Numbered from the stretch's first letter, positions 9,745 through 29,030 are shown. The stretch: DNA of 64,000 nt from Candidatus Thalassarchaeum betae (GCA_022447095.1 JAKUUP010000005.1:2065-66064), one strand, 5' to 3'. The notes: a model not told the origin generated them from the sequence alone. Numbers and translations: made by a program.

Positions 9745-12700
9745 TTGGTTACGAGAAGGCGAGAGCCGATGACAAAGCGTTCAGTCTCAGTCGTGATGGC
9801 GGTTTTGTTACTTTCATACCTGCCTATTCTCGACCAGTCATCGTCCTATGAAAACTCCCCCGAAGAGGGCTTGGCACTGGATTCCGCAGTGGAGAGAATA
9901 GAGATATCTCCAGACCCTAACAGCATCCAGAACCTTGGCGCTCCAAACATCTACTCGGGCTATGAGGACATCCGTTCCCTCCGTGCTGACTCAACGATTG
10001 GAGTCTACACCGGGGCCGGACTCCTTCCCGGTGTCGCGATGAGCTCTAAATTGGCCGAGACGCGCTCCGATCTGGCTATCGTCCTAGTCGATGGTGAGGC
10101 CGGCCTCTGGGATGCCAGACAGGAGATCCTAGATGCAGTCGAAGTCGAGATAAGGTCTACCATCCCACCATCGGGATTCCTCGTCCAAGGTTCCCCCGGA
10201 CAACTCGCTGAGTTGACTCGCATCTCCGTGGTCAGCGCCGTACACGATGTCCCAGCCGGACTGTTGGTGCACCCGATGTTCTGGGAGGCTAATGGAGATG
10301 AGACCATCCTCGTTGAGGTACTCGGCTGGAAGGACTCCGAACTCATTCGTCACAGCGAGCCCGGACTAGGCTTGGACGACTCGCTCAGCATCGCTGCCTC
10401 GCTATGGCTCGAAGAGGCATGGTCGCCCGAGCAAGGTAGGATTTGGGGTGAGATTGGTATCAGCGATATCTCTCAGATTGTCAGGCATCCATCGGTGGCT
10501 TACGTGGCACCGCTGCCATTGCTGATGCTACATAACGACGAGGCCCGTGACCACATGGGAATCAACACCGTGGATAACACCTTCATCACCGGGCTAAACG
10601 GCAGCGGACAGAAGATAGCCGTAGGCGACTCCGGACTCGACAACGATCATGGTGACTTCACCGGTAGAGTCTCGGGGCTGACATCTGTCACTCCAGGCGA
10701 CTCATCCACCGCAGATCCTTCTGACGGGCACGGAACTCACGTTGCCTGCACCGTCCTCGGTGATGGCTACCGCAGTAGTGGGACCTACCAAGGAATCGCT
10801 CCAGAGGCCCTGCTTTACTTCCAGGCGATGGAGGATGACGACACCGGAGCCCTCTACAGTTATGGCATCAACAGCATGCTTAACTCGGCCTACAACAACG
10901 GTGCTCGCTTACACACCAACAGTTGGGGCGCAGGCAGTGGTTCAGGCAGCTACTCAACTCAGTCCGAGGACGCCGACGACCGCACCTCTACCTGGGACCA
11001 GTACTGGTCTTACCAAGGGATGACGGTGTTGTTCGCCGCTGGTAACGAGGGCAACGACGGGGTCTCCCCTCCAGGCACCGCGAAGAACGTCATCACCATC
11101 GGCGCCCATCAGAACCGATACAGCGGCGCTCCGGACGATATGTACTACTGGAGCAGCCGCGGACCGACCGACGATGGCAGGATCAAGCCGGATCTGGTCG
11201 CCCCGGGAGAATACGTTCGCTCTTGTAAGGCTCAGGAGGCGCAGGACGCAGAAGGCTCTTGGAGCAACAACTGGTATCTTGAATATACAGGGACATCGAT
11301 GGCAACGCCAGCAGCGGCCGGTGCCGCCGTCCTCGTCAGAGAGTACCTGATGGAGGTCGCTGGCAGACAGGCCCCTCAGAGTGCCCTCGTCAAGGGACTG
11401 CTAATCCTAGGTGCCATGGACATGGGCACCCGGGACATCCCCAACAACAACGAGGGTTGGGGAAGGGTCAATCTGGTCGACTCGCTAATTCCAGACAACG
11501 ATGTCGGCATATTCGTGGATGACCGCTCACGCCTCTCCAGCGGGCAGGTGAGCGAGTACACCTTCGACGTCACCCGCGCCGGCGAGCCGATGAAGGTGGT
11601 TCTGACTTGGTCCGACTACCCCGGCTCTTCATCCTCCTCAAGCCAACTCAGAAACGACCTCGACCTAGAGGTGATTTCGCCTAACGGGCAGGTCACATAC
11701 AAGGGGAACGCCTTCGTCAACGGCCACTCAGTCACTGGCGGTACCAAGGACTCCACCAACAACGTAGAAGTCGTCCTGATGGATAACGCCGCGACCGGCA
11801 CGTGGACAGTCCGCGTGCGCGATGCGCAGCATGGTGGTGGGCGTACATGGCAACCCTACGCGCTCGCAGTCCGTGGAGTGAACGTGAACGACCTGACCCC
11901 CGACCCAGCATTCGTACAGAACTCATTCGAGATTACCTCTGCGATTCCACAGGTCGGCGAGGAGGTCGATGTCACTGTGACTGTTCAGAACCTAGGTGCC
12001 GGTTCCGTAGCCGAAGTCGCTGTGATTGCAAGAGCCGACAGTGAACTACTCGGTACTCAAACTCTGAGCATGTCCCCAGGAGAGTCTGCCGAGTTGTCTT
12101 GGAACTGGACCCCCGACCATGAGGGAGAGGTGGAGTTCACTTTCCACATCGACCCGAGCGATACGGTAGAGGAGACCTCGGAATCGAACAACTACTTGTC
12201 ACAGACGGTGGTGGTCAGCGCACCTGGGGTTCGCGTTACCACCGAGCAGGACACCATGACGCTGGCAGATGCGACCGACAGTTCGACGACTTGGGAGTTG
12301 TTCCTGATGAACACGGCTCTGTTTGAGACCAACGCCTCCATTGTCGTCACCGATCCCGTGCGAGTACAGGACGGCGTCGAGTTCGACTGGTTCACATCTT
12401 TCACCTCGAATACCTTCAACCTCGAAGCCGCCGAGATGACAACCATTGGCCTGACGGTAGTCCATCCGGCCCCACCTCCGCCCGGCCTCTATCGGATGGT
12501 GGTGACCGGGACCGACATTGAGAACGATATCGATTCTGAACTGATGCTCTACTTCGAGGTCCCGATACTGGCTGAGGCCGACATAGTCCTCCCCGGAGAG
12601 CAGTTCCTAGTCAGTCCACTCGAGCCGACAGATCTCCAGATACTGGTCTTCAACGATGGCAACGGTGCTCAGGCCTACGATGTCGAACTCGTCTCCCCTG

Positions 12701-14271: not shown

Positions 14272-14277
14272 TTGAAC

Positions 14278-14297
14278 CGCGACCCTAAGGGGTCGCG
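14278..14297 (+). terminator. Perfect hairpin (8-bp stem cgcgaccc/gggtcgcg, loop taag) 7 nt after the subtilase stop
   Basis: Inverted repeat seen directly in the 67-nt intergenic spacer. Confidence 0.35.
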
Positions 14298-14338
14298 ATG
14301 CCCGAAGTCCTTAGAGGGGCGATTGAGTCGGAGCGACG

Positions 14339-17035
14339 ATGAAGCGTGATTCATCGGCCTCTGTGCTGACGGCTTTGCTGCTATTGACTATCATGTCACC
14401 ACTAGCCACCGCTGCAGTCTCAGTGTCGCTTTCTGCGAGTCCGACGGCCCAAGAGGCCACCACCGATGACGATGCAGAGTACGACATCATCGTGACTAAC
14501 GACGGCGATGAGGATATCTCGGTCACTTTGAGCACCCAGCAGGGTAACGACTGTAACGGCTTTTCATCCTCTTTGGACTCCTATCAGGTCTCAGTCGATG
14601 AGGGGACATCTGAGACGGTCGTACTGACTGTCTCTGTGAATGACCAGGCAGACGGTGACTGCGAGACCACCGTAAACGCTCAGGCTACAGCAGGTATCGG
14701 ATCGCCGGCCAACGACGATGTTACGGTAACCACGACTGCTGGTGACGGAGGCGGCCTATACTCGGTGAAACTCACTACCGACGAGCAGATGAAGACCTAC
14801 GGGGGCGAGGATAGCGATGAGGGCGATAGCGTTGCCTGGGATGTCGAAGTGGAGAACAATGGCGAGCAGCAGGCCAACGTCCAACTCGAGATGATATCAG
14901 ACAGCGATTGCGAGTCCGACACCCTCGATGCCACTGTGGATCCACAGGTCCTGCAGTTGGAGCCGGAGGACAAAGAGACCGTCGAGGTCACAGTCGAAGT
15001 TCCTGACGGTAGTTCCACCGAGGCAGGAGACCACTGCTTCATCCTCAGAGCAACGGTGACCAACGACCCTAACGCAGCAGATCAGGCTGAGGACAATATC
15101 ACACTCACTCTGAAGATTCCTGAGCGCAAGGAGTGCGACCCGAACCTCCAGTACACCTCACACAACCTCGACCCCGATGAATCTGCGACCAATTCCTTTG
15201 AGGTCGAGAATATCGGCAACACCGAGTGGACGGTGACGGCAAACGCCCAAGCCCATGATTCGGACCACGACATAACTGACTGGATAGACTTCAACAGCCC
15301 ACTCAGCAAACTGCTCTCCGAGCCCGGAGGCTCTCAGGACGGCCATACGTTCACCTTCTCAGTCACCCCTGACGACTCGGTCGAGTCGGGAACCCAAGTG
15401 GGTATCAGGATACAGGGGCGTGCTGGTACCGCTGTGGGCTGCGAGCAAACGCTCACTGTCACCGTGGGCCAGAGCCACGCCGCTACTATGACCCTGAGCA
15501 AGAACAAACTCTCAAACGTCGAACCAGGGAGCTCAGAAACGGTTTCGGTTCAGATAACCAACCTCGGCAACGGGATGGAAACTCTCTCAGTAGGCGCCAC
15601 AGGACTGCCTCCTGGCTGGCAGATATCCTTCTCCCAGAATTCGGTCACCGTAGGAAGCGTGCACTCCGGCAACAACAGGCAGACCATCAACGCCGAGGTC
15701 TTCGTGCCCGAGGATGCCAGCGCCGAGGATGAGACGGTGATCACCTTCACAGTCGGACGCGGCGGCGGCACCACTCCTTACGACACCAAGGACCTCACAG
15801 TTTCCGTCGCTGCCCGACATGACCTGACCACTTCGATCCTGTCGACCCAGCAGACGGGCCGCTCAGGGCAGACGGTGCAGTTCCCAATAGATGTCACCAA
15901 CTCGGGTAACATCCGTGACACCTTCAAACTCCTGACTTGCGACCCAGGTGACCAGACTGGATGCAACCAGCCGATGTGGGAATCATCCTACTCCGATAGT
16001 CAGGGCAACACGATCACGCAGGTAATCCTTGACCCCAGTCAGACTCAGACAGTGTACCTCGACATCCTCGTCGAGGGTGAGGAGGAGGCCGATTCAGCGA
16101 ACGTGCTCGCTCGAATCGCGATATACGGTACAACTGTAGTGGACGAGCATACTGTGAGCGTAATAGTCTCAAACTACAACTACGCCATGGCGATCACTGC
16201 GCAGAATCCTGGTGATATCCCTGATCAGATTGATGCTACTCTCCCACCAGGAGGCACCCTGACCACTGCATTCTGGGTCGAGAATACCGGTGATTACCCC
16301 GGTGGCGATACTGCCGTGATATCATTGAGCGGCATGGAGTCGTCAGTACTGCGGACAATTACCGTTGAGGGGGTGGAGATCGAGAGTACACTCTCTCTGG
16401 GAATGGGCGAGAGAGTGCTCATTGAAGTAGAGATAGAGATTCTCGATGGCGTGGCGAATGGCGTTTCTGGGGTAGTAAAAGTCAGCGCTTCATCAGAGAA
16501 GAACACTGCCCAGAGCACCTCAGTCGACCTGATTGTCGCAGTCATGACCATCCATGATCTCAGATTCACCCTTGAGGGAGAGGACGAGCAGACCGCAGAG
16601 TATCCAGACAAGGCCATCTTCATCTTGTATGTCACCAATCACGGCAACATACTCGAGACAGTACAGGTCCTGTCCAGTGAGTCACTCAGGGGTTGGTCGG
16701 TCGATGTGGTAGGTGAGGAGTTTGAACTTGAATCGGGGGAGACTCGGGAAGTCGAAGTGAGAGTCACTCCACCTAGCGATTTGCTTGATGATGACACCTA
16801 TCTTTTCACTCTGACCGTGCAGCCGGAAGACCTTGCTGTGGCAGGTCAGCCAATTGACCTGACAGTGATATCGGAGATGCCATCGTCGTTCATCGGCTTG
16901 ACTGAGGAGCAGGCTCAGGCACTGGTCTACGGCTCCATCATTCTCGGTGGGATTCTGGTCGTCGTCCTGTTCTTTCGTTCCCGCGCTGAAAATCGCAGAA
17001 TCGTGGAAGCGCTCGAAAATGAGTTCGAAGACTAG
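14339..17035 (+). CDS. Secreted cell-surface protein built from ~8 CARDB-like (NxGN) beta-sandwich modules, with a C-terminal TM anchor
   Basis: Signal peptide MKRDSSASVLTALLLLTIMSPLATAAV. Recurrent motifs VTNDGDEDI, VENNGEQQA, VENIGNTEW, ITNLGNGMET, VTNSGNIRDT, VENTGDYPG, VTNHGNILET. C-terminal TM (LVYGSIILGGILVVVLFF) and a short tail. Confidence 0.75.
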   Translation: MKRDSSASVLTALLLLTIMSPLATAAVSVSLSASPTAQEATTDDDAEYDIIVTNDGDEDISVTLSTQQGNDCNGFSSSLDSYQVSVDEGTSETVVLTVSVNDQADGDCETTVNAQATAGIGSPANDDVTVTTTAGDGGGLYSVKLTTDEQMKTYGGEDSDEGDSVAWDVEVENNGEQQANVQLEMISDSDCESDTLDATVDPQVLQLEPEDKETVEVTVEVPDGSSTEAGDHCFILRATVTNDPNAADQAEDNITLTLKIPERKECDPNLQYTSHNLDPDESATNSFEVENIGNTEWTVTANAQAHDSDHDITDWIDFNSPLSKLLSEPGGSQDGHTFTFSVTPDDSVESGTQVGIRIQGRAGTAVGCEQTLTVTVGQSHAATMTLSKNKLSNVEPGSSETVSVQITNLGNGMETLSVGATGLPPGWQISFSQNSVTVGSVHSGNNRQTINAEVFVPEDASAEDETVITFTVGRGGGTTPYDTKDLTVSVAARHDLTTSILSTQQTGRSGQTVQFPIDVTNSGNIRDTFKLLTCDPGDQTGCNQPMWESSYSDSQGNTITQVILDPSQTQTVYLDILVEGEEEADSANVLARIAIYGTTVVDEHTVSVIVSNYNYAMAITAQNPGDIPDQIDATLPPGGTLTTAFWVENTGDYPGGDTAVISLSGMESSVLRTITVEGVEIESTLSLGMGERVLIEVEIEILDGVANGVSGVVKVSASSEKNTAQSTSVDLIVAVMTIHDLRFTLEGEDEQTAEYPDKAIFILYVTNHGNILETVQVLSSESLRGWSVDVVGEEFELESGETREVEVRVTPPSDLLDDDTYLFTLTVQPEDLAVAGQPIDLTVISEMPSSFIGLTEEQAQALVYGSIILGGILVVVLFFRSRAENRRIVEALENEFED

Positions 17036-17065: not shown

Positions 17066-17118
17066 TTATTTCTCTGTTTCAGGTGGAATGACCCGTCGGT
17101 CCCTTAGGGACCGTCGGG
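17066..17118 (+). promoter_or_regulatory. T-rich tract (cttatttctctgtttc) followed by an imperfect 13-bp hairpin (17090-17118) between the surface-protein block and nuoA
   Basis: An oligo-pyrimidine/T tract typical of archaeal termination, then acccgtcggtccc-tta-gggaccgtcgggt (one central mismatch), ending 2 nt before the likely nuoA start. Confidence 0.3.
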
Positions 17119-17120
17119 TG

Positions 17121-17576
17121 ATGCTGATGACTTCTGTTCCCGAGGCCTATGTCGCAGTCGCTGTGATGACTCTAGTTGGAATTGGTTTTCCGGTAGTCAG
17201 TTTCATCGCATCGGCCTTCCTAAGGCCTAGAAAAGTCTCCAACGAGCCGTTCAAGATGCGCTCTTGGCTACTACCCGGTTACGAGACCGACCAGAGCCTG
17301 TACCTCCGTAGGGACAGCACCTACGAGTGTGGCGCCGAGCCTGTCGGGGACGCGCACATCAACTTCCACTTCCAGTACTATTGGTACGCCCTTATTTTCC
17401 TAGTATTCGACATCGCGTTCATGTTCCTTGCCTTCGGCGGGGTCATAGCAATGCAAGAGGGAGTGCTAGAAAGACCGGAGGTAATCGGAGCTTTGGCCAC
17501 CCTGACCGCGTTCATAGTGCTCATGAGTCTAGGCGTATGGCACGTCTTCCGAAAGCGGGGCAGGATATACATCTGA
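17121..17576 (+). CDS. nuoA: NADH-quinone oxidoreductase subunit A (ND3 family)
   Basis: YECGAEPVG...INFHFQYYWYALIFLVFDIAFMFL matches the NuoA signature. The longest ORF starts at 17088, but 17121/17127 is more likely. Confidence 0.85.
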   Translation: MLMTSVPEAYVAVAVMTLVGIGFPVVSFIASAFLRPRKVSNEPFKMRSWLLPGYETDQSLYLRRDSTYECGAEPVGDAHINFHFQYYWYALIFLVFDIAFMFLAFGGVIAMQEGVLERPEVIGALATLTAFIVLMSLGVWHVFRKRGRIYI

Positions 17577-17585
17577 GGTGAGGGA

Positions 17586-18182
17586 ATGGCGGACGAAGGT
17601 CAGAACTACTCCATGTTCAACAGCAGGATGCTGGTCGATGTCGTTGGAGATGTCACTGATGAGGCCCTCAAAGCGAGTCGAATCAAGGACATCATCGGGG
17701 TACTCGCAGGGAGGGTCTTCAATTGGGGTCAGCGCAAATCCCTGTTCCCACTCCATCTCGGTATCAAGTGCTGCGCCCTAGAGATGGCCGCCGCCGGAGC
17801 CAGCCGCTTCGACGCCGAGCGCTTCGGCGTCTTCTTCCGATCCAGCCCCCGACAGTGCGATGTCCTGCTTGTAAACGGACCGATTAGCAAGAAGTTCGCC
17901 GATCCGATAGTCCGACTCTGGGAGCAGATGCCCGAGCCCAAGTGGTGCATAGCCATGGGCGAGTGCTCGATTTCCGGCGGACCCTACTTCCAATCCTACA
18001 ACATCCTCGAGGGTGTTGACACTATCATCCCTGTCGATGTATACATCCCAGGTTGCCCACCACGACCAGAGGCTCTGATAGACGGCTTTGACAAACTTCG
18101 ACAGAAGATCATCCGCATCGGCGCTGTTCCGAGTGACGCAAGACCAGAGACAGAAGCACCACTCATCATCGGAGATGAGTGA
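17586..18182 (+). CDS. nuoB: NADH-quinone oxidoreductase subunit B (20 kDa, N2 cluster)
   Basis: CCALEM..., GECSISGGPY, PGCPPRPE. Confidence 0.92.
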   Translation: MADEGQNYSMFNSRMLVDVVGDVTDEALKASRIKDIIGVLAGRVFNWGQRKSLFPLHLGIKCCALEMAAAGASRFDAERFGVFFRSSPRQCDVLLVNGPISKKFADPIVRLWEQMPEPKWCIAMGECSISGGPYFQSYNILEGVDTIIPVDVYIPGCPPRPEALIDGFDKLRQKIIRIGAVPSDARPETEAPLIIGDE

Positions 18183-18197
18183 AAGGGGGGGGTTTCG

Positions 18198-18857
18198 ATG
18201 GGTAAGATAGTACCAATCAAGACGCAGAGGGCCGAGGCTGACAAACTCGCTGCCGCCATTTCGGAGATCGATGGAGTCGAAGCCGAGGTGGCCGAGCGAG
18301 CAAGTGGCACCAACCCCCGCCCGGTCGTGCTCGGAAACAGCTCTCCAGAGAGTTGGAGGGCACTAGCTGAGAAACTCCGCTCCGAGCATGGCGTCGACTA
18401 CTGCTCGATGGTAACCGGCATCCACTGGCCAGAGGGTGATGATGACAAGAAGTGGGAAATCGTCTACCACTTGATGAGAACCGGTATCAGAAACCCACCT
18501 ATTGAGGATGGCCTAGTTCAGCCAGTCATTGTCGACCCCTCTACGGTCAGGGGCTCCGGCACTCCACTGGAGTTGGAATTACATGTCCACCTGCCGGATA
18601 CGAGAACCCCTTCGGTGGACTCGGTTCAGGACATCTGGGTCGGTGCCGATTGGAATGAGAAGGAGACCTGGGATCTCGTTGGGATAGATTTCGATGGGCA
18701 TCAGGGAATGAGGAGGGTGCTGCAGCCCCACGAGACCCCCAAGGGCTTCCACCCTCTGCAGAAGCAGCATCGCCTCCGCTACCACGATTTCCAAGATATG
18801 TACGACGATTCCCAGGGATTCATGCGTAAGCCTGCTGACGCTGGCAAGATCAAGTGA
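18198..18857 (+). CDS. nuoC: NADH-quinone oxidoreductase subunit C (30 kDa)
   Basis: WEKETWDLVGIDFDGHQGMRRVLQPHE (the E.E..D..GI.F.GH...RRIL motif). Confidence 0.85.
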   Translation: MGKIVPIKTQRAEADKLAAAISEIDGVEAEVAERASGTNPRPVVLGNSSPESWRALAEKLRSEHGVDYCSMVTGIHWPEGDDDKKWEIVYHLMRTGIRNPPIEDGLVQPVIVDPSTVRGSGTPLELELHVHLPDTRTPSVDSVQDIWVGADWNEKETWDLVGIDFDGHQGMRRVLQPHETPKGFHPLQKQHRLRYHDFQDMYDDSQGFMRKPADAGKIK

Positions 18858-18866
18858 GGTGAGAAG

Positions 18867-20003
18867 ATGGCAGAGATGTGGATTTCGATGGGCCCCCAGC
18901 ACCCGATGACCCATGGTCTGTGGACTCTCAAAGTCAAAGTCGACGGCGAGACCGTCGTCGACACTGAGCCTGATTTGGGCTACATCCATCGTGGAGTCGA
19001 GAAGATCTGCGAGGCTCGGGATTTCACCCAGATCACGACTTACTGCGACCGCCTCTGCTACGCCAGTGCCAACACCTGGTCCCACTCCTACATCTACGCG
19101 GCTGAGGACCTACTCGAGGTCGAGGTCCCTGAGCGAGCCGAGTACATCCGCTTGGTGGCAATCGAGATCCAGCGCATTGCTAGCCACCTGATGTGGTTGG
19201 GCGCATATGGTCCCGACATCGGCAACTTGTCCGTGATGGTTTGGTGCCTGCGCGAGCGCGAGATGATGATGGATCTTCTCCAAGAACTAGGCGGCTCACG
19301 CATGCACTACAACTTCCCCCGTGTCGGTGGCGTCAAACGCGACCTACCACATGGCTTCGCTCAGCGAGCCCGCGCCAAGCTCAAGTTGTTCCTCAACAGG
19401 ATCCAAGAGTACGAGGCGCTGTTCGACGAGAGCACGGTGTTCCTAGTGCGCAGTCAGGGTGTGGGCTACGCAAAGCCGGAGGAGATGGTGAACCACGGCG
19501 TCACCGGACCCAATCTGCGCGCTGGCGGCGTAAACTACGACATCCGCTGGGCTCACCCTTACTCGGTGTACAGCGAACTTGATTGGGAGCCCCCGGTGGA
19601 ACGCTCCTCGATCAAGGGCGCTGACTGCTACGACCGCTACAGAGTCAGAGTCGAGGAGATGCGTGTGAGCGCGTCGTTGGCGTTACAGGCTCTGGACAAA
19701 ATGCCCGGAGGCGCCGACACCCACCACGAGCCAGGGGACCCGATGATACTCGCTAAGGCGCCCGCCCGGGCCCCTGAGGGAACCACTGGCGCACACCACT
19801 TCGAGGACAGCAGAGGCGAGTCGATGTTCTACATCGCCGGCGGCGGCGAGAGTCGAGGCAAGCAGCCTTACAGGGTCTCGATACGCTCTCCGATTTTCAT
19901 CACAATCCCGTTCGCGGCCAAGTGCATGATCGGTTACAAGGTCGCCGATATACCGGCCATCATGGGCTCCTTTGACCCATGTATAGGGGAGACAGACAGG
20001 TGA
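18867..20003 (+). CDS. nuoD: NADH-quinone oxidoreductase subunit D (49 kDa)
   Basis: MGPQHPMTHG, GYIHRGVEKICE, TYCDRL.YASAN. Confidence 0.92.
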   Translation: MAEMWISMGPQHPMTHGLWTLKVKVDGETVVDTEPDLGYIHRGVEKICEARDFTQITTYCDRLCYASANTWSHSYIYAAEDLLEVEVPERAEYIRLVAIEIQRIASHLMWLGAYGPDIGNLSVMVWCLREREMMMDLLQELGGSRMHYNFPRVGGVKRDLPHGFAQRARAKLKLFLNRIQEYEALFDESTVFLVRSQGVGYAKPEEMVNHGVTGPNLRAGGVNYDIRWAHPYSVYSELDWEPPVERSSIKGADCYDRYRVRVEEMRVSASLALQALDKMPGGADTHHEPGDPMILAKAPARAPEGTTGAHHFEDSRGESMFYIAGGGESRGKQPYRVSIRSPIFITIPFAAKCMIGYKVADIPAIMGSFDPCIGETDR

Positions 20004-20008
20004 TTCAC

Positions 20009-21586
20009 ATGGCTAGCGGCGACTGGTTGAACATCGTTGGTTGGTCCGAGTCTTTGACCAGTTGGTCGATGGACAACGTGCACGACGTCCTGCCTTCCAA
20101 CGACATCGACATGCAGGTCACCATACCGAGCACTTGGGCATGGCCGGAACCGATAACCATGGGTCCAATCTTCAATCTGCAACAGGGCTTCGCTAGCATT
20201 CAACCAGCTCTTGAGTCGTTCATGCATGCCACCATCATGTGCACGGTCGTCTTCACTGTCATGATGCTCACTATGCTGGCCATCCCATACATCGAGAGGA
20301 AGTTCATCGGACGGCTGATGGACAGACTCGGTGCCACCACCACCATGAGGAGCCTGTGGGTCGGCGAGAGCGGAGTGACAGCGGGGGAGTGGTGGAAGCA
20401 GTTGCCCTTCGGCATGGGTATCCCTATTGGATGGGTCGTCAACCTGCTGAACTCGTATTGGGGTAACAGTCACGAACTTGAGACTGTATCCAGAGTCAAC
20501 AACCGTAGTTATCATGGCTACTGGTTCCTTCTTCCCGGATTCTTTCAGGCGTTCGCCGACTTCATGAAATTCGCTACCAAGGAGCACATCGTACCGAAGA
20601 ACGCCGACAAGGTGGTCTTTGAGATCGCCCCTGTCATTATCCTCGCGACCACTATCATGGTGTTCGCCTTCGTACCGTTCGGCCCGCATATCTATGCTGC
20701 CAATCCAGAGCTCTCCCTCCTTTTCATGATGGCAATCTTCGGAGTCGCTCCGCTCGGGGTTTTCTTCGCCGGATGGGCCTCTAACACCAAGTACACTTTG
20801 ATCGGCGGGATGCGCTCGGCAGCCCAACTCACAGCATACGAGATACCGCTACTCATCACGGTTCTCGGCGTCGCGGTGCTCAGTGGCTCGTTCAACATCA
20901 TCGAGATAGTCGACTTCCAAATGGGCCAGAACGAAGGCAACGTCTGGAACATCTTCCTACTGCCGTTGGGCGCGGCTCTGTTCCTCATCACCATGATCGC
21001 CGAGGTCGAGCGCATACCGTTCGACATGCCCGAGGCCGAGGCCGAACTCGTTGAGGGCTGGTGGACCGAGTATGGGGGCATCCGGTGGGGCCTGATGTTC
21101 GCTGCCGAGTACATGCGCTCGTACGCCGCATGCATACTGTTCGCACTATTCTTCCTCGGCGGTTGGGAGGCGCCGTTCCAGCATACGCTCGCGGGCTTGC
21201 CAATCGTTGGAGGCACCTTCGAGACTGTCTTCACCGTCGTCCCAGGTCTCGTATGGGTCCTGATCAAGGCTTGGCTGTTGTTCGCTGTGTTCGTCTGGAT
21301 CCGCGCCTCTCTCCACAGGGTTCGCACGGATCAGATACTGGAGTTCGGCTGGCGCTATCTCCTGCCACTATCGATGGTCAACCTCGTTGTAGCGACCATA
21401 CTGCGATTGGAGGTCTGGACAGGAGAGCCATGGGACCTGTGGGTCCCGGTCGCCCTCACACTTGCCGCGCTAGTACTGTTCGTGATACTCGCTATCGATG
21501 AGGACGAGGAGGCGCTGGAAGTCCAACGCCGTCCCTACAGCACTCAGGCCGTGGTCAAGGCATCGCCAGGGAGTCACAGGGACTAG
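20009..21586 (+). CDS. nuoH: NADH-quinone oxidoreductase subunit H (ND1), with N- and C-terminal extensions and an internal insertion
   Basis: IERKFIGRLMDRLG, GFFQAFADFMKFATKE, AEVERIPFDMPEAEAELVEGWWTEYGG. About 525 aa versus ~330 typical. The ORF can extend to 19979, overlapping nuoD. Confidence 0.85.
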   Translation: MASGDWLNIVGWSESLTSWSMDNVHDVLPSNDIDMQVTIPSTWAWPEPITMGPIFNLQQGFASIQPALESFMHATIMCTVVFTVMMLTMLAIPYIERKFIGRLMDRLGATTTMRSLWVGESGVTAGEWWKQLPFGMGIPIGWVVNLLNSYWGNSHELETVSRVNNRSYHGYWFLLPGFFQAFADFMKFATKEHIVPKNADKVVFEIAPVIILATTIMVFAFVPFGPHIYAANPELSLLFMMAIFGVAPLGVFFAGWASNTKYTLIGGMRSAAQLTAYEIPLLITVLGVAVLSGSFNIIEIVDFQMGQNEGNVWNIFLLPLGAALFLITMIAEVERIPFDMPEAEAELVEGWWTEYGGIRWGLMFAAEYMRSYAACILFALFFLGGWEAPFQHTLAGLPIVGGTFETVFTVVPGLVWVLIKAWLLFAVFVWIRASLHRVRTDQILEFGWRYLLPLSMVNLVVATILRLEVWTGEPWDLWVPVALTLAALVLFVILAIDEDEEALEVQRRPYSTQAVVKASPGSHRD

Positions 21587-21594
21587 GAGGTGGG

Positions 21595-22566
21595 ATGATG
21601 AGTTACAAGGCGAATACCGGACATCCTCACGCGACTCCGAACTTCCGCAACCTCATTATCCGTCCGATGTGGATGACCCTCAAAACCGCACTAAGGACAG
21701 TCCCCTTCGTCGGCAAATTGAGATTCCTGAAGAACGACTATCACGGCAAACCCACAGTCATGGTGGACCAAGTCACGATGGACAGGGTCGGCTCAGAGCA
21801 CCCGAGCGTCGGCCAGAAATTCGCTCCTGACAGGGAGACCAGCCAAGTCATGCCTTTCGTCGAGCGACCGGTCACGGTGATGTACCCCTACGAGCGCCTT
21901 GAGGATCTCGAGCCATGGCTCTTCGTGCCCGGGAATTACTTCGGCCGTATCGGAATAGTATGGGAAACCTGCACAGCTTGCAAGTTGTGTATCCACGCTT
22001 GTCCAAATGACTGCCTCCACATGACCACCGAGGTCCGAGTGAACGTGCTTGAACTCTCCGAGGATGGCGACGAGTGGCACGGCTACGGGGGCGAACTCGA
22101 GGAGGGCGGCTACGCAGCTAGGGAGAAGGAGGAGTACCACGACATTGCCGCAAGTTTCGATTTGGTCAACGCGCACGCCGACGCACCTCAACAGTACGAC
22201 TTCGCCGAAGTCATCGAGATCTCTGGCGACAAGGCGACTGTGCGGTGGTCCGACGGCTCGGGAATCGAGACCGTTGACTCTACGTCCCTCAAACCGGCCG
22301 AGCAGGACATCGTGTCGGGTCAGATAGACCTCGGCAGGTGCATGTTCTGCGGGCTGTGCGCCGAGGCGTGCCCGTTCGAATCCTTCTTCATGACCAACGA
22401 GTATGACGGGATGTCTGGTTTCTCCCGAGAGGAGCTGTGGATGGACGCCAGCAGAACCCGCGTCTTGCCTGCAGTCCACCAAGAGAGAGTTGACATGGAA
22501 CTCGCTAAGCGCGCTGAGAAGGAGAAGCAGAAGCGCGCTCGCAAGGCTGCCCGAGCAGAGGCGTGA
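21595..22566 (+). CDS. nuoI: NADH-quinone oxidoreductase subunit I (2x[4Fe-4S] ferredoxin), with a ~100-aa insertion between the cluster motifs
   Basis: CTACKLCIHACPNDC and CMFCGLCAEACPFES are separated by ~115 aa, against the usual ~30. The C-terminus is Lys-rich (KRAEKEKQKRARKAARAEA). Confidence 0.85.
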   Translation: MMSYKANTGHPHATPNFRNLIIRPMWMTLKTALRTVPFVGKLRFLKNDYHGKPTVMVDQVTMDRVGSEHPSVGQKFAPDRETSQVMPFVERPVTVMYPYERLEDLEPWLFVPGNYFGRIGIVWETCTACKLCIHACPNDCLHMTTEVRVNVLELSEDGDEWHGYGGELEEGGYAAREKEEYHDIAASFDLVNAHADAPQQYDFAEVIEISGDKATVRWSDGSGIETVDSTSLKPAEQDIVSGQIDLGRCMFCGLCAEACPFESFFMTNEYDGMSGFSREELWMDASRTRVLPAVHQERVDMELAKRAEKEKQKRARKAARAEA

Positions 22567-22570
22567 GACA

Positions 22571-22834
22571 ATGCAAATCGACCTCGAGGCACTGGTGTTC
22601 GTAATTCTGGCAGCGACCGCCATTGGCGGCGCGCTGGGGTGTGTCTACGCCCGTAAGGTCGCCCACTCGCTGCTTTCACTCATGATGATGTTCTTCGCGG
22701 TTGCAGGAGTCTTCGTGATGGCCAGTGCGGAGATGCTGGCAGCGATTCAGATTCTCGTGTACCTCGGCTCCGTGATGCTCGTAGCCATGTTCGCAGTAAT
22801 GCTCACCCGCAGGCAGATACAGGAGGGCTTGTAG
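22571..22834 (+). CDS. nuoJ1: NADH-quinone oxidoreductase subunit J, N-terminal half (J1)
   Basis: MQIDLEALVFVILAATAIGGALGCVYARKVAHSLLSLMMMFFAVAGVF matches the NuoJ N-terminal helices. A stop codon is followed 1 nt later by the J2 start. Confidence 0.75.
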   Translation: MQIDLEALVFVILAATAIGGALGCVYARKVAHSLLSLMMMFFAVAGVFVMASAEMLAAIQILVYLGSVMLVAMFAVMLTRRQIQEGL

Positions 22835-22835
22835 G

Positions 22836-23102
22836 ATGAGGGCACTGTCCGCACTGGCCCGACTGGGTATATTTGCATTCATCCTGATTCTGCTCTCCGA
22901 GGTCATGTCCCACTCGATGTGGGGCTCGACTGAGGTGGCACCTTCCACACTCGACTTTGCGGTAGCTCTGTTCGGCGAGTGGTCGATGGCCACTGTGGTC
23001 CTCGGCGCGTTGCTGGCAATGGCCATGATCGGGGCCTCCTATCTAGTCCGTGACGAGCGCTTAGTCAATCTAATCTGGGATATGGAAGGTGATGACCAGT
23101 GA
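22836..23102 (+). CDS. nuoJ2: NADH-quinone oxidoreductase subunit J, C-terminal half (J2)
   Basis: Two-TM protein contiguous with J1 and ending 4 nt into nuoK. A split nuoJ is known in some archaeal operons. Confidence 0.65.
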   Translation: MRALSALARLGIFAFILILLSEVMSHSMWGSTEVAPSTLDFAVALFGEWSMATVVLGALLAMAMIGASYLVRDERLVNLIWDMEGDDQ

Positions 23103-23401
23103 TAGAGGCTAGTTGGATAGCTGGACTCGGCGTCATACTGTTCGGAATAGGTCTTCTCGGCGCTTTCAGCCGCAAGAACGCCATCGTGGTACTGATGTGC
23201 ATCGAGGTGATGCTCAACGCAGCCAACCTCAATTTCGTCGCCGGTGCTGTCCACTACGGCGACGTCAACGGCTGGGTGTTCACTGCCATCGCAATCGCAA
23301 TTTCAGCAGCCGAAGTAGCAATCGGGCTCGCTATCCTGTTGTCCTTGTACAGCACGCAGGAGACGATATACCTCGATGAGGCGAATATACTGAAAAATTG
23401 A
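23099..23401 (+). CDS. nuoK: NADH-quinone oxidoreductase subunit K (ND4L); GTG start overlapping the J2 stop
   Basis: LLGAFSRKNAIVVLMCIEVMLNAANLNFVAG. Confidence 0.9.
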   Translation: MIEASWIAGLGVILFGIGLLGAFSRKNAIVVLMCIEVMLNAANLNFVAGAVHYGDVNGWVFTAIAIAISAAEVAIGLAILLSLYSTQETIYLDEANILKN

Positions 23402-23410
23402 GGTGAGAGC

Positions 23411-25738
23411 ATGAGTGAGTCGAACAACGAGTGGCACCTCCTGCTACCGGTACTACCGTTCCTAGCAGTCACGCCATACCTATATTCGACTGGCTGGGAG
23501 TCTGTAGAGGCCGCTTACCTGATCGTCGTGGTCCCGCTGCTGACTTTCCCACTGATCTTGATTCTGGGTCAGATGTACAACGGCAACGAGACCTGGAAGC
23601 AGCGCTACAAGGAAGGAGGCATCTTCGCCCTTGGCGCCCTCGCACTGTCCCTCAGCATAGCCGTCTGGATAATCTACGACTATATTTCCGGATCAGCACA
23701 CTTCGAGGCCAACTCGGTGGTCGACCCGTTCTCGTGGCTAACCTTCGATGTCCTACAACATAGCGGCTCGCAGTGGGAACTCAGCACCGGCTTCGCCGAC
23801 ATCGGAGTCGGCGTTTGGATAGACTCGATCAGCCTGATGCTGCTTTTCGTCGCGACCTTCCTGTGCTTCCTGATCTGCTGGTTCAGCCTCGGCTACATGA
23901 ACACGGACTCGATCAACGAGGACCGGAACCACCGCTTCTACGGGGAGTTCGTGCTCTTCGGCATCGGCATGTTCGGAATGGTGCTCGCTGACAACTTCCT
24001 GTGGCTGTTCATCTTCTGGGAGATAATGGGACTCTGCTCCTATCTCCTCATCGGCTTCTACTTCTGGAAGGAGAGTGCCGCTGCGGCTGCCAAGAAAGCC
24101 TTCCTGACTACTCGCGTGGGTGATGTTTTCCTGATGGTCGGTTTGCTGATTCTGTACAACATCTACGGATCGCTGGAGTTCGCAGTGATATTCGACGACC
24201 CCTCGACTGGCGTCGGCGGGGCGCTCGTCGACTCAGGAGAGTTATTTTGGGCGTTGATGATGCTCTTCATCGGGGCAGTTGGCAAGTCGGCCCAGTTCCC
24301 GCTCCATGTCTGGCTGCCGGACGCGATGGAGGGCCCGACACCGGTTTCCGCGCTCATACACGCCGCGACGATGGTGAACGCCGGCCTCTACCTCGTCGCT
24401 AGGATGGTGCCTTTCGTTGACATCGGTCATGGCGGAGTCGCAGGACTCGAGGACATCGGACTCATCATCGCTTGGATAGGTGGCATCACAGCGTTCATGG
24501 CCGCCGCCATCGCCCTCGTCCAGAACGACATCAAGAAGGTCCTCGCCTACTCGACGATGAGCCAACTAGCCTACATCTTCACTGGGTTGGGTGCAGCCCT
24601 CTTCCTCCTCAATATCGGGGAGAACCATGCCGGGTACTTCGTCCTCGGTGCTTCGATGTTCCACCTGTTCAACCACGCCATGGCCAAGGGGATGCTGTTC
24701 ATGGCGAGCGGCTCGGTCATACACGAGGTGCATCACGCCCACGACCATGTACGTGAGTTGAGCCTCAAGTATAGCAGCCATGAGGGAGAGGACCCATCGG
24801 CCTTCGACCCGCAGGACATGCGGATCATGGGCGGATTGGCAGCCAAGATGCCGGTTACTGCCACAGCGATGATGTTCGGATCGATGTCCATCATCGGCAT
24901 ACCTCTCATTGGCGGCTTCTGGTCCAAAGAAGGCATCATCGCTGAGACCTGGGCCACCTGCCTGCACGAAGAGCCGATGATGTTCGTACCCGCCCTCCTT
25001 GTTCTCGCGACTGCGGGTATGACGGGCTTCTACATGACGAGGATGTGGCTGATGACCTTCGCCGGGCCACCCAAGAGCGAGGTGGTCGGGCACGTTCACG
25101 AAGCCACCCCTTGGATTAAGGAGCCGCTGATCATACTCACACTAATCACAGCCATTGGCGGATTCGGTTTCGCATTACTGGGAGCAATTAACTTCCTCGG
25201 TGGCGAGTCGGACCACTTGGCTATTCACGGCGACGACCTCATTTCAGCGATACTGAATGAACTCGAACACGCCTTCCTGCCCGATGATCCCAATCTGAGA
25301 CTGGTTGGCTGGACTACGATCCTCATCGCTATGGTTCTGGGGCCTGTGATGGCCTCACGCATCCACGGCGGACGGCTCATCGACGGGGTCGAGTCCAGTC
25401 CCTTCGTTGCTTGGCTGGTCAACCTCTCCAGCCGCTTCGGCTCGCAGAATGTCGACGAGTTGGCTAACTCGCAACTCGCTGAGGCTCTGCGGAGGAGGTT
25501 GTACTTCGATGACCTCTACGAAATGGTACTGGCAAAGACCGCTATTCCCCTCGCATCCTTCTCGGCTTGGTTCGACCAGAATGTCATCGACGGAGTCATC
25601 AAACAAATCGAGTCAAAATCAGCTTCCGGTTCGGTGCAAATCCGCAGAGTGACCACGGGTAACGCGCGCGACTACATCCTGATGGCAGCGGTCGGAATGC
25701 TCTCTATCTTCGCACTGATATGGGGGGTGAGCGCTTGA
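23411..25738 (+). CDS. nuoL: NADH-quinone oxidoreductase subunit L (ND5), elongated to 775 aa
   Basis: FWEIMGLCSYLLIGFYF, WLPDAMEGPTPVSALIHAATMV, plus a long C-terminal amphipathic region. Confidence 0.9.
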   Translation: MSESNNEWHLLLPVLPFLAVTPYLYSTGWESVEAAYLIVVVPLLTFPLILILGQMYNGNETWKQRYKEGGIFALGALALSLSIAVWIIYDYISGSAHFEANSVVDPFSWLTFDVLQHSGSQWELSTGFADIGVGVWIDSISLMLLFVATFLCFLICWFSLGYMNTDSINEDRNHRFYGEFVLFGIGMFGMVLADNFLWLFIFWEIMGLCSYLLIGFYFWKESAAAAAKKAFLTTRVGDVFLMVGLLILYNIYGSLEFAVIFDDPSTGVGGALVDSGELFWALMMLFIGAVGKSAQFPLHVWLPDAMEGPTPVSALIHAATMVNAGLYLVARMVPFVDIGHGGVAGLEDIGLIIAWIGGITAFMAAAIALVQNDIKKVLAYSTMSQLAYIFTGLGAALFLLNIGENHAGYFVLGASMFHLFNHAMAKGMLFMASGSVIHEVHHAHDHVRELSLKYSSHEGEDPSAFDPQDMRIMGGLAAKMPVTATAMMFGSMSIIGIPLIGGFWSKEGIIAETWATCLHEEPMMFVPALLVLATAGMTGFYMTRMWLMTFAGPPKSEVVGHVHEATPWIKEPLIILTLITAIGGFGFALLGAINFLGGESDHLAIHGDDLISAILNELEHAFLPDDPNLRLVGWTTILIAMVLGPVMASRIHGGRLIDGVESSPFVAWLVNLSSRFGSQNVDELANSQLAEALRRRLYFDDLYEMVLAKTAIPLASFSAWFDQNVIDGVIKQIESKSASGSVQIRRVTTGNARDYILMAAVGMLSIFALIWGVSA

Positions 25739-27336
25739 TTGATGACCCCCTGTCAGTGATCACCCTCGTCCCTCTGGCGGCAGGCTTGATTCTGCTGGTA
25801 CTGCCTCAGATACTACCAGGCGACTCGGCTGACGGCCTCAGGCGTGTATCGCGCAACATCAGTATGGGCGTGGCCCTAGCTATCGCCACGATCACGACCA
25901 TGCTGTTCGTGGGAGAGATAGGCAACATAGACTGGACCAACATCACTCAGGGAGGATACGTCCTAGAGAACGAGGCCGTCTCCCTAATCCCCTCCATAGG
26001 AGTGTCTTGGAAAGTAGGTGCTGACGCACTCTCGTTTCCGATGATTTGGCTCACAGCGATCCTCATACCAGTCTCGATGCTGGTCGAGTGGGACGCCAAG
26101 AGGGGGCACCTCTTCCACCCACTTCTCCTGATTATGGAAAGCGCACTCATCGGCGTCTTCGTCGCTCTCGACCTGTTCGTCTTCTACGTCTTCTGGGAGC
26201 TTACTCTGATTCCGATGTTCCTACTTATCCTTGTTTGGGGTGGGGAGGATCGCCGCTACGCGGCGATGAAGTTTTTCATCTACACATTCACAGCAAGTGT
26301 CTTCATGCTCGTCGGCATCCTCGTGATGTACTTCCATACCGACCCGATATCCGGCCTCGGCGACTTGTCCGGACACCACTTCGACTTGGTTGCCATGACG
26401 GCTCAGGAAAATCTGATTCCCAGCGAGGGCCTCAGGCACTTCGTCTGGTTCCTCCTGCTCATCGGCTTCGCCACCAAGATGCCCAGCGTACCGGTCCACA
26501 CTTGGTTGCCGGACGCACACGTGCAGGCTCCCACGGCCGGCTCGATGCTGCTTGCTGGAGTGATGCTGAAGATGGGCGCCTACGGATTCCTGCGAATCTC
26601 GGTCACAATCTTCCCTGAGTCAACAGTGGTGTTCATCCCCCTACTGATAGTTCTGGGGATGGTGAGTTTGGTCTACGGAGCATGGGTCTGCATGGGCCAG
26701 ACCAATCTCAAGCGCATGGTCGCCTACTCCTCAGTCTCGCATATGGGACTGATCTTCCTCGGTATCGCCACTATGCAGCCTCTGGGTATCGCTGGGGCGC
26801 TGTTCATGATGTTGGCCCACGGTATCATCAGCCCGCTTCTGTTCGCCGTGGCTGGGGCGTTCAAGCACCACTATCATACTCTAGAGATTGGCTCTATGAG
26901 GGGCATGGCGCATCACAGCCCGTGGCTTGCTGGCCACATGATGTTCGGCTGGATGGCCAGCCTCGGCCTACCGCTGCTCGCCGGATTTGTCGCAGAGGTT
27001 ACAATCCTGATCGCATTTTGGATGTCTTACGGTTGGCTAGTGCTGCTACCAGCGCTCACACTCATAGTCACGGCCGCGTATTACCTGAATTCGATGCAGC
27101 GCACCATCTTCGAGTCGAACGACCCGCATCAGGGAGACCTACCTGACTCCTTGCACGGTGAGCAGCCGAGCGACATAACCTGGCACGAGAATATCGGGAT
27201 GTTCGTGCTGGCTGGCATGACCGTACTCTTCGGCATTATGCCATTCATCTTCTGGGACATGATGTCAGACTGGAGTTCCAGCTTCGTACTCGATACGATG
27301 GTGGAAGCGATGCACTCACAGGGGTGGAGACCATGA
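25720..27336 (+). CDS. nuoM: NADH-quinone oxidoreductase subunit M (ND4)
   Basis: WLPDAHVQAPTAGSMLLAGVMLKMGAYGFLRI. Start choice is uncertain; the longest ORF overlaps nuoL by 19 nt. Confidence 0.88.
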   Translation: MGGERLIDDPLSVITLVPLAAGLILLVLPQILPGDSADGLRRVSRNISMGVALAIATITTMLFVGEIGNIDWTNITQGGYVLENEAVSLIPSIGVSWKVGADALSFPMIWLTAILIPVSMLVEWDAKRGHLFHPLLLIMESALIGVFVALDLFVFYVFWELTLIPMFLLILVWGGEDRRYAAMKFFIYTFTASVFMLVGILVMYFHTDPISGLGDLSGHHFDLVAMTAQENLIPSEGLRHFVWFLLLIGFATKMPSVPVHTWLPDAHVQAPTAGSMLLAGVMLKMGAYGFLRISVTIFPESTVVFIPLLIVLGMVSLVYGAWVCMGQTNLKRMVAYSSVSHMGLIFLGIATMQPLGIAGALFMMLAHGIISPLLFAVAGAFKHHYHTLEIGSMRGMAHHSPWLAGHMMFGWMASLGLPLLAGFVAEVTILIAFWMSYGWLVLLPALTLIVTAAYYLNSMQRTIFESNDPHQGDLPDSLHGEQPSDITWHENIGMFVLAGMTVLFGIMPFIFWDMMSDWSSSFVLDTMVEAMHSQGWRP

Positions 27337-29030
27337 GTTCGATTTTTACCGACATAGACGCCGAGACGGTGGAACTTATCCTGCCTGAACTCATCATGCT
27401 GGCGGGCATGCTCGCGATGATTCTCATACCCAATCTCGGAGACGCCACGATGAGGATCCCCCTCACAAAGACGCGAATCCCCATCCTGTTCGGAGGGACG
27501 AGGTTCGCAACGACGAACAACCCGAAGATCCCCAATCAGATTGCATCGACGACCTTTGGGCTTGCATTGGTCTCAGCCTTCCTGTTAATACACAATGAGG
27601 GCGATGTCGGAAACGCCCTGCACGTTGACGAGTTCAGCAGGTTGTTCACGATTATTTTCACAGCGGCCTTGTTGCTTGCTTCGATTGCTACGACTCACAG
27701 GTTGCCGGCGAGGCCCAAGGTGACCGCGCCGATCGAGACAGACTCGTTGGCTAGGGCCGATGCGAAAATCAACGCACTGATAGACAATCGGAGGCAGGTC
27801 GACTTCCACATCCTTCTGGTCACGACCGGACTTGGGATGAGCCTGATGGCGATGGCCACCAACTTGTTCATGCTCTTCGTCTGCCTTGAGCTCGCCTCAC
27901 TCTCATCGTACATCTTGGTCGCCTTCCACAAGGAGATTGATGTCGGCGGCGAGGCCGGGACGAAGTACTTCATCGTCGGCTCGGTGGTCTCAGCGATCGG
28001 AATCTACGGTATGTCCCTTCTTTACCTCTGGAACGGCAACTTGGACATGGCCAACCTAGAGACCTCTTGGGATGCAATGGAGGCGATGGACCCATTCGCT
28101 GCTATCGGTGCCGGCCTGATGCTGGTCGCCTTCGCATTCAAGGTCGGCGCAGCCCCATTTCACCTCGCTGTTCCCGATGCCTACGCAGGTGCCTCTTCAC
28201 CTGTGGCTGGGGTCTTGGCAACGGCCTCCAAGGCGATGGGCTTCGTCGCACTGATGCGCCTCCTACTCATCGTAACCATGCCAGCGGCTGGAGAGGCGTT
28301 CTGGTTCGCAGTGCTTGCCTTAATCTCGGTGGTGACTATGACGTGGGGCAATCTGGCAGCGCTGACCAGCGACAACCCGAAGCGCATTCTGGCATACTCG
28401 AGCGTAGCCCACGCTGGCTACATGCTGGCCGCACTCACCGCCGTCGGCAGTGGGCTGGCTGACGCCGATGCAACGGCCCTACTGATGACCGCGGTGTTGT
28501 TCCACCTCGTCGTCCTCTTGCTGTTCAAGTTCGGCGCCTTCCTCGTCCTCTCGATGCTCGAGACTGAAGGACGCAGTCATCGACTCGAGGACCTCCACGG
28601 ACTGGCTCGAAGGGATCCGATTGTAGCCGCCTCCATGTTCATCTTCATGCTCTCGTTGGCGGGTGTCCCACCGCTTTCCGGGTTCCTGTCGAAACTCTTG
28701 ATGATCAACGGTATAGTCAACGTCTCCGCCGGCACTGGAGCACTGTCGTCTACATCGATAGTATCTTGGGCTCAGGGCGTCGAACCCATCTTCTGGCTGG
28801 CCGTCGCGATAGTCCTCAACAGCGCCCTGTCTCTGTTCTACTATCTCAGAATCGGACTGGTGATGTTCTTCGAGTCCCCAGAGAGCGAGAGGACGCTCAA
28901 GCGCGCAGGATCCCTCAGGATGGCCATAGTGGGATGCGCGCTGCTCACCCTGCTCTTCGGGGTCGGTCCGATGAGCGAGTCACTTCTCGACTTGGTTAGC
29001 GCAGCAGTCGACTCTTTCGCGGGCAACTGA
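27324..29030 (+). CDS. nuoN: NADH-quinone oxidoreductase subunit N (ND2), elongated to 568 aa
   Basis: ASLSSYILVAFHKE..., AAPFHLAVPDAYAGASSPVAGVLATASKAMGF. There is a ~40-aa insertion after TM1. Confidence 0.85.
   Translation: METMSSIFTDIDAETVELILPELIMLAGMLAMILIPNLGDATMRIPLTKTRIPILFGGTRFATTNNPKIPNQIASTTFGLALVSAFLLIHNEGDVGNALHVDEFSRLFTIIFTAALLLASIATTHRLPARPKVTAPIETDSLARADAKINALIDNRRQVDFHILLVTTGLGMSLMAMATNLFMLFVCLELASLSSYILVAFHKEIDVGGEAGTKYFIVGSVVSAIGIYGMSLLYLWNGNLDMANLETSWDAMEAMDPFAAIGAGLMLVAFAFKVGAAPFHLAVPDAYAGASSPVAGVLATASKAMGFVALMRLLLIVTMPAAGEAFWFAVLALISVVTMTWGNLAALTSDNPKRILAYSSVAHAGYMLAALTAVGSGLADADATALLMTAVLFHLVVLLLFKFGAFLVLSMLETEGRSHRLEDLHGLARRDPIVAASMFIFMLSLAGVPPLSGFLSKLLMINGIVNVSAGTGALSSTSIVSWAQGVEPIFWLAVAIVLNSALSLFYYLRIGLVMFFESPESERTLKRAGSLRMAIVGCALLTLLFGVGPMSESLLDLVSAAVDSFAGN

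Follow-up and report, generated by a model that had tools for sequence, protein, structure and literature searches.

Herein we describe a NuoI subunit in which a conserved extra domain of about 86–88 amino acids (aa) is inserted at the tip of the β-hairpin that links the two [4Fe-4S] cluster motifs. The insertion, which is predicted to combine a glycine-rich acidic loop with a Tudor/SH3-like β-barrel, belongs to the 11-subunit complex I of Marine Group II (MGII) archaea, is negatively charged in every sequence compared and is under purifying selection. Its location suggests that it may serve as a built-in accessory module for electron entry, a reading that we put forward tentatively. All positions refer to the window, i.e., the whole 64-kb stretch of DNA that was analysed.

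Identity and genomic context of the NuoI subunit

The gene is the sixth of a nuo operon (Table 1), and a Shine-Dalgarno-like GGAGGTG lies a few bases 5′ of its ATG (21595, + strand). Its product contains both CxxCxxCxxxCP motifs, which serve as ligands of clusters N6a and N6b, together with PVTxxYP(Y/E)E before the first motif and NEY...(F/Y)xR after the second. In a phmmer search against PDB sequences the closest entries were NdhI chains of chloroplast and cyanobacterial complex I, with query residues 91–150 pairing with NdhI 33/36–88 and query residues 239–283 with NdhI 91/94–134/136. Pfam detected just two Fer4 halves, and the NuoI model TIGR01971 (NCBIfam) matched in two separate stretches (E 1.8e-20) with 72.7 bits, short of its curated cut-off of 113.05 bits; the protein likewise scored under the own cut-off of every NuoI equivalog model in NCBIfam. 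These scores are explained by the insert, which splits the match in two, and for the same reason public records annotate it merely as ‘4Fe-4S binding protein’ or ‘hypothetical protein’, next to others that name it ‘formate hydrogenlyase subunit 6/NADH:ubiquinone oxidoreductase subunit I’. The rnfB model TIGR01944 is also weakly matched by the protein.

A preliminary description had called the protein NuoI, and both cluster motifs, the PVTVxYPYE signature and the place of the gene between nuoH and nuoJ, an order kept in related loci, agree with that name. A mis-assignment of the motifs can be set aside, as the NdhI alignment and the Fer4 matches place both of them as called. Judged by its sequence, the protein is the NuoI (Nqo9/TYKY/NdhI-type) 2×[4Fe-4S] subunit of an 11-subunit complex I from an MGII archaeon, and in our reading it should be filed as a divergent family member with a domain insertion, not as a non-member. 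With the canonical NuoI/Nqo9/TYKY (NDUFS8) of the 14-subunit complex I it shares both motifs, PVTxxYP, an N-terminal amphipathic helix (aa 17–34, modelled at low confidence, which would match the NdhI N-helix as described in PMC6992706) and the nuoH–nuoJ position. It differs from canonical NuoI in length (323 aa, against 145–231 aa in the listed solved chains), in the hairpin insertion, in two further additions (aa 38–90 and an EPWLFVP segment) and in the operon around it, which has no NuoG gene.

The neighbouring genes were named by Pfam, except that nuoJ(C) gave no match and was named by its position and by the weak Oxidored_q3 match of its counterpart in a related locus, L081. The gene order is identical in 65 of 80 related loci, the rest being cut by contig ends, and nuoD is directly followed by nuoH in related loci (median gap 8 nt). 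The two adjoining ORFs that make up nuoJ, J(N) at 22571–22834 and J(C) at 22836–23102, are a layout common to L081 and to all of the related loci that reach so far (77 of the 80). Neither in the operon nor among the scanned ORFs of the window was nuoE, nuoF or nuoG found; archaeal complexes are described as lacking NuoEFG (PMC11237513).

Other genes of the window were noted as well. Directly 5′ of nuoA (2358–17035) lie very large, very acidic ORFs of 762–1500 aa with a pI of about 4.1. In the two of these upstream ORFs that were scanned, PKD or NPCBM-associated/Ig-like domains were detected, and the one of 898 aa is in addition hydrophobic in a stretch at the N-terminus and in a segment at the C-terminus. 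The group probably represents cell-surface proteins. On the − strand, sdhA and sdhB (the flavoprotein and iron-sulfur subunits of succinate dehydrogenase) occupy 52594–55187, followed by a 293-aa ORF (55190–56068) for which there was no Pfam match.

Table 1 Features of the nuo operon and of NuoI, with positions in the window.
Feature	Residues (aa)	Position	Strand	Basis or detail
11-subunit-type nuo operon, nuoA-B-C-D-H-I-J(N)-J(C)-K-L-M-N		17088..29030	+	ORFs and Pfam matches
nuoI	323 aa	21595..22566	+	coordinates include the stop codon; TIGR01971 match, closest PDB sequences NdhI/NuoI
N-terminal amphipathic helix	17–34	21643..21696	+	H17–34 in AF2 model, low confidence
Second lineage-specific NuoI insertion, from N-helix to PVTVMYPYE	~38–90	21706..21864	+	NdhI alignment, dN/dS 0.047
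First CxxCxxCxxxCP motif, CTACKLCIHACP	126–137	21970–22005	+	motif read and Fer4 family match
Outgoing hairpin strand	141–150	22015..22044	+	strand E141–149 in AF2; NdhI alignment until residue 88
Acidic Gly-rich loop, motif W161-H162-G163-Y164-G165..E167.E169.G171-G172	151–172	22045..22110	+	conservation; pLDDT about 50–55
Tudor/SH3-like small β-barrel (predicted)	173–238	22111..22308	+	strand, helix 181–187, four strands
Return hairpin strand, continuous with last barrel strand	239–248	22309..22338	+	E232–244 in AF2; NdhI alignment from 91/94
Second CxxCxxCxxxCP motif, CMFCGLCAEACP	249–260	22339–22374	+	motif read and Fer4 family match
Basic C-terminal helix, ELAKRAEKEKQKRARKAARAEA, net +4	296–323	22480..22563	+	H296–322, pLDDT 64–77 in AF2

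Size and position of the hairpin insertion

The first cysteines of the two motifs are 123 aa apart, with 111 residues between the motifs, which is close to the spacing of ~115 aa given in the preliminary description. The alignment coordinates with solved NdhI chains set the corresponding spacing in NdhI at 37, and in place of the short hairpin of the family (first-Cys spacing of about 37–45) the homologues of our protein that show both motifs have 107–123. As NdhI joins the same two aligned blocks by a few residues, the net insertion amounts to ~86–88 aa (aa ~151–238), located at the tip, or turn, of the β-hairpin linking both cluster motifs. The insertion reported earlier is thus real, although its size had been overstated at ~100 aa: the span first assigned to it, 22012–22340, corresponds to aa 140–249 and hence to the entire inter-motif stretch.

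Predicted fold of the insertion

Structure prediction points to two parts, a Gly-rich acidic loop and a Tudor/SH3-like β-barrel, of which the barrel is confidently modelled (pLDDT 72–89). The full-length AF2 model, built from a shallow alignment, has a mean pLDDT of 53 and a poor ferredoxin core, and is unfit for judging where the barrel lies with respect to the clusters; within it, aa 171–180 and 201–230 reach a pLDDT of 86–89. When aa 139–248 were modelled alone, the core (pLDDT 72–85) was predicted as a strand, a short helix and four more strands, the last of which continues into the return strand of the hairpin. The model thereby has the five-stranded, strongly bent antiparallel architecture of about 50–70 aa expected of such barrels, and the earlier suggestion that the insert contains an independent small domain is borne out at the level of prediction.

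The affiliation of the barrel within this fold class is generic. A Foldseek search with the barrel gave no match at E ≤ 0.001 and ranked NdhO third and NdhS 26th, and the matches to NdhS and NdhO are weak and no better than those to Tudor or KOW domains. The structural alignments with NdhS/NdhO have identities of 13–17%, and no Pfam match to the NdhS/NdhO family was obtained at E ≤ 1. None of the Pfam Tudor, KOW and SH3 models was significant either, the sole match being to the SH3-like Myosin_N (E 0.12). An hhalign comparison of the insert with Tudor-like repeats gave 93% probability, for a target that had been picked since it already matched the insert profile; the Tudor-like sequence signature spans aa 201–234. 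The predicted five-stranded barrel is shared with Tudor/KOW/SH3-like domains in general, while for a Tudor-type barrel inside an iron-sulfur subunit we found no precedent.

Distribution, conservation and selection

The insert is present in all of at least 120 listed homologues, which are 65–97% identical to the query and 295–334 aa long if complete, and the motif spacing is 107–123 in 114 of 120, i.e., in every homologue with both motifs recognised. When GTDB was scanned with each species represented by a single genome, 440 species genomes proved to encode a relative. The best 80 of these 440, all metagenome-assembled genomes, are labelled Thalassarchaeum, Thalassarchaeaceae, Poseidoniales or Marine Group II, or else carry generic archaeal labels, and the closest match was Candidatus Thalassarchaeum betae (97% identity). 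A divergent form in Candidatus Poseidoniaceae (MGIIa) also carries the insert (~46% identical), which makes the insertion older than the split of the two MGII families. When a profile of the insert only was searched against 1.84 billion representative proteins, the 32 matches comprised NuoI fragments or variants of the same kind together with multi-repeat Tudor and Big_3 proteins, and there was no NuoI-type match outside this insert-bearing kind. The Big_3 proteins were rejected as relatives, as we regard the matches to their multi-repeat ‘VTATYSDGS..DVT’ strand pattern as generic β-strand similarity. The literature searched held no description of a NuoI hairpin insertion, an absence that is no proof of novelty.

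Across these sequences, MGIIa included, the barrel residues H194, F203, G211, W218 and A235 are invariant, and the loop residues W161-H162-G163-Y164-G165, E167, E169 and G171-G172 are nearly so; in one relative (P0103), 16 aa are missing in the acidic-loop region. Since synonymous sites were saturated when all pairs were compared, dN/dS was redone on 74 close pairs, which gave 0.006–0.013 for the ferredoxin core, 0.033 for the barrel, 0.070 for the acidic loop, 0.047 for the N-terminal insertion, 0.035 for the tail and 0.05 for the insert as a whole. The insertion is under purifying selection. A loop that is conserved and yet modelled at low confidence would be typical of an interface segment.

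These data bear directly on a view of the insert as artefact or neutral passenger, which would make it a misassembly, an intervening element that went unrecognised or an expansion tolerated despite having no function. The suspicion has a source in public gene calls of ~184 aa that start at the internal Met143, and in two adjacent calls on a 1.24-Mb contig, which at first sight resemble a broken or split gene. The DNA accounted for these calls by contig ends, single-base frameshifts or one nonsense variant. In L082, L084 and L085 the gene runs off the contig end and an internal start was picked. In L081 (3970–3980; the 1.24-Mb contig, from a long-read assembly) and L083 (about 150–170; a Tara contig), 1-nt deletions within motif 1 cause a frameshift and split gene calls. 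In L086 (about 1170–1210) and L087 (about 230–270), from different samples, the conserved GAA (Glu) in the YPYERL*DMEPW stretch of nuoI reads TAA, which by its sequence is a nonsense variant shared within one Poseidoniaceae population. A split NuoI was accordingly rejected: all of the 80 loci fetched from genomes hold one intact ORF with both motifs. With the low dN/dS of the insert and residues invariant in both MGII families, the artefact or passenger explanation is already refuted and retains practically no probability, and the concern that the insert might be an assembly artefact absent from relatives no longer stands, given its presence in all of the listed homologues and the 440 species genomes that encode a relative. 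As a corollary for databases, a large number of the ~184-aa proteins listed publicly as ‘ferredoxin’ represent truncated NuoI.

Charge of the insertion and of the C-terminal tail

The acidity noted in the preliminary description is confirmed, with 26 D/E against 7 K/R and a pI of 4.1 over aa 138–252. The net charge is −11 for the loop part and −7 for the barrel, and it is negative in all 81 sequences compared, ranging from −7 to −13 over aa 151–190 and from −6 to −11 over aa 191–238. For every 100 aa the insert carries about −20 charges, whereas the proteins of the window (median pI 5.1) carry about −4, a contrast that identifies the acidity as a conserved property of the insert and not as proteome background.

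The C-terminal tail has the opposite sign. It had been described as strongly basic and Lys-rich, and basic it is (net +4 here, +2 to +6 across the 81 sequences); however, it is a short predicted helix and not a long extension, reaching ~17 residues beyond the stretch aligned to Paracoccus NuoI (8qby_I). K305 and R306 are invariant, and K309, K313, R314 and K317 are nearly so. A Lys-rich C-terminal extension of FpoI in Methanothrix (Methanosaeta) thermophila was reportedly proposed by Welte and Deppenmeier to bind ferredoxin. The Methanothrix FpoI resembles our protein in being a NuoI-type subunit with a basic C-terminal tail in a complex lacking a dedicated input module, but the tail is short here (~28 aa). 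To our knowledge, FpoI has not been reported to contain an insertion in its hairpin. Methanothrix is without FpoF, and FpoB or FpoI may take electrons from ferredoxin (PMC10470525).

Additions elsewhere in the complex

The hairpin insertion is accompanied by others. Within NuoI, a second lineage-specific insertion of ~50 aa is deduced from the position of PVT, at aa 92 here versus 34–37 in NdhI; Y49, H50, D58, R64, G66, H69 and D79–E81 are conserved within it. An invariant 7-aa insertion, EPWLFVP (aa 105–111, window 21907–21927), precedes motif 1. NuoH (19979–21586) is 535 aa long and aligns to solved NuoH/NdhA chains from about aa 187, equal to chain residues 44–71; because the alignment starts only there, ~130 N-terminal residues are counted as extra, and ~60 of the extra residues lie between ERKFIGRLMDRLG and GFFQAFADFMKF, in the TMH1–2 loop region near the quinone cavity. 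In NuoC, 147 residues matched the Pfam profile over 119 profile positions. NuoD (18867–20003) has Cys60, Cys64 (in R-L-C-Y) and Cys372 (in a C-terminal DPCIGETDR), which are invariant in the 74–77 related loci covering each position. We take these cysteines to be at or near the ancestral [NiFe]-ligand positions, and the RLCY tyrosine presumably occupies the position of the quinone-site Tyr in ‘RMDY’ of Thermus Nqo4.

Lineage-specific additions of this kind, in NuoH, in the N-terminal part of NuoI and in other subunits, fit general structural decoration equally well. The hairpin insert could then be a purely structural cap without donor recognition, one of several additions (to NuoH, NuoA, NuoC and the N-terminal part of NuoI), an explanation that is possible but that we hold to be rather doubtful. 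Its function, in our estimate a similarly doubtful one, would be to stabilise the peripheral arm and to shield the exposed N6a from solvent or oxygen in an aerobe without N-module, which would suit the description of MGII archaea as aerobic heterotrophs (PMC6336850). The late start of the NuoH alignment, the aa 38–90 insertion and the excess length of NuoC speak for a cap; purifying selection suits any structural role, and an acidic surface is ill-suited to ferredoxin binding. Set against it is the place of the insert, on the one hairpin known for donor contacts in a related enzyme (PMC7021789, PMC6992706), where even a cap must affect donor access. The invariant WHGYG in the low-confidence loop, with H194, would moreover suggest a specific partner over simple packing.

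Comparison with the ferredoxin site of NDH-1L

The related enzyme in question is the cyanobacterial NDH-1L (PDB 6HUM, 6KHI, 6L7O, 6NBQ), which has a complex I core without NuoEFG, subunits for which the MGII operon likewise has no genes. In NDH-1L, ferredoxin is contacted by NdhI Lys86, Lys89 and Lys91 and by NdhH Lys315 and Lys321 (PMC7021789), and basic patches bind the acidic ferredoxin (PMC6992706). The NdhI hairpin projects above the hydrophilic arm with ferredoxin and NdhV on its two sides, 9.6 Å from N6a; it swings upon ferredoxin binding, and the loosely bound NdhV has a regulatory role (PMC6992706). NdhS ‘sits in a groove of NdhI’ and NdhO is on the other side (PMC7021789), so that small barrels around a NuoI-type subunit have a precedent as separate subunits. 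The apex of NdhI resembles that predicted for the MGII protein in its SH3-like small barrels, NdhS and NdhO both being among the fold matches of our barrel.

The differences are equally clear. Judged by the table coordinates of the phmmer search, residue 91 of T. elongatus NdhI corresponds to residue 237 of the query, which indicates that the insert replaces the Lys-bearing turn of NdhI; the basic feature of the hairpin tip (Lys86/89/91) is not found, as the junction reads LKPAEQDIVSG with one Lys. In NuoD, the ferredoxin-contact lysines of NdhH correspond to A298 and E304, which have K297 and R301 as neighbours, in a loop for which the alignment is uncertain. NdhS and NdhO are separate subunits whose basic residues face the ferredoxin site, whereas the MGII barrel forms part of NuoI itself, taking the place of the Lys-rich turn at the hairpin tip, and has a net charge of −6 to −11; the host is a non-photosynthetic archaeon. 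Judged by sequence, the likeness to NdhS/NdhO would be one of fold and location only, and the barrel is not a member of either family.

A further parallel is offered by the stromal face of photosystem I, where PsaC, like NuoI a 2×[4Fe-4S] protein, has two small neighbours, PsaE and PsaD, which give the ferredoxin site its shape. Although PsaE is an SH3-like barrel, it is absent among the listed fold matches of our barrel. Unlike the arrangement here, PsaE and PsaD are separate subunits, and the electron flow is reversed. Ferredoxin has been reported to bind NdhI in a PsaC-like manner (PMC7021789).

Possible roles in electron entry

The reading that we tentatively favour, and which we would rate as having a reasonable, if not the better, chance of being correct, is that the insert forms a built-in accessory module at the electron-entry apex that covers or shapes the N6a docking site and thereby selects or steers the donor. 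In this scenario a Poseidoniales ancestor would have gained the ~86-aa insertion at the tip of the inter-cluster β-hairpin, as a fused counterpart of the NdhS, NdhO (and NdhV) barrels around NdhI in NDH-1L. The apex would be the face at which electrons enter, as suggested by the operon, in which NuoEFG are missing, and the module would cover and shape the docking site around N6a and so select or steer the physiological donor.

As the negative charge of the insert is conserved, two variants of the accessory module may be considered. In one, the donor would have a basic surface; in the other, an acidic ferredoxin would dock on the NuoI C-terminal helix and NuoD, with the acidic module fencing or gating the site. 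Should the donor be ferredoxin, it is unlikely to make contact through the insert, whose charge of about −18 is opposite to that of basic ferredoxin sites. The preliminary description had proposed that the insertion could form the missing electron-input docking surface; the hairpin-tip position and an operon without nuoEFG are consistent with this, but the conserved charge is the opposite of the ferredoxin patches of NDH-1L, and a docking role would follow from position only.

Two more specific roles can be set beside the accessory module. In the first, the acidic barrel and the WHGYG loop would act as a receptor for a donor other than a conventional acidic ferredoxin, which we consider unlikely. 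Redox proteins that are basic or specific to the lineage could fill this place, as could a dehydrogenase or polyferredoxin module that is tethered to the complex, e.g., an orphan RnfB-like protein. An orphan RnfB, unaccompanied by the other Rnf components, is reported for many MGII genomes (PMC6336850) and would be a candidate partner of the NuoEFG-less complex I. In the second, to which we assign a still smaller likelihood, the acidic loop would be a regulatory pseudo-substrate gate that mimics ferredoxin and fills the basic patch formed by the NuoI C-terminal helix and NuoD until it is displaced, so tuning electron entry. In 81 of 81 sequences the loop is acidic (−7 to −13) and the helix basic (+2 to +6), which would be in line with a gate, as would the low model confidence of the loop, which is hence probably mobile, and the swinging hairpin and NdhV-based regulation of NDH-1L (PMC6992706); P0103, which does without 16 aa of the loop, speaks against it.

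Implications for complex I in Marine Group II archaea

Marine Group II is among the most abundant groups of archaea in the surface ocean. Its complex I has been termed ‘canonical’ in a genomic survey (PMC6336850), but with a conserved extra domain on the inter-cluster hairpin it is not. That hairpin makes the donor contact in the sole 11-subunit-type enzyme for which a donor complex has been solved, and what donates electrons directly to the 11-subunit complex I, the form that lacks the NADH-oxidising module, has long been debated as an open question (PMC11238625). For MGII, the 86-aa insert provides a defined handle for identifying it. The finding also raises the possibility of convergence, in that a small β-barrel has come to lie by the 2×[4Fe-4S] subunit, as NdhS/NdhO do in NDH-1, but here through fusion. 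If the insert were indeed a receptor for the donor, the complex would represent a new class of electron input, partly encoded within NuoI itself, in abundant archaea of the ocean.
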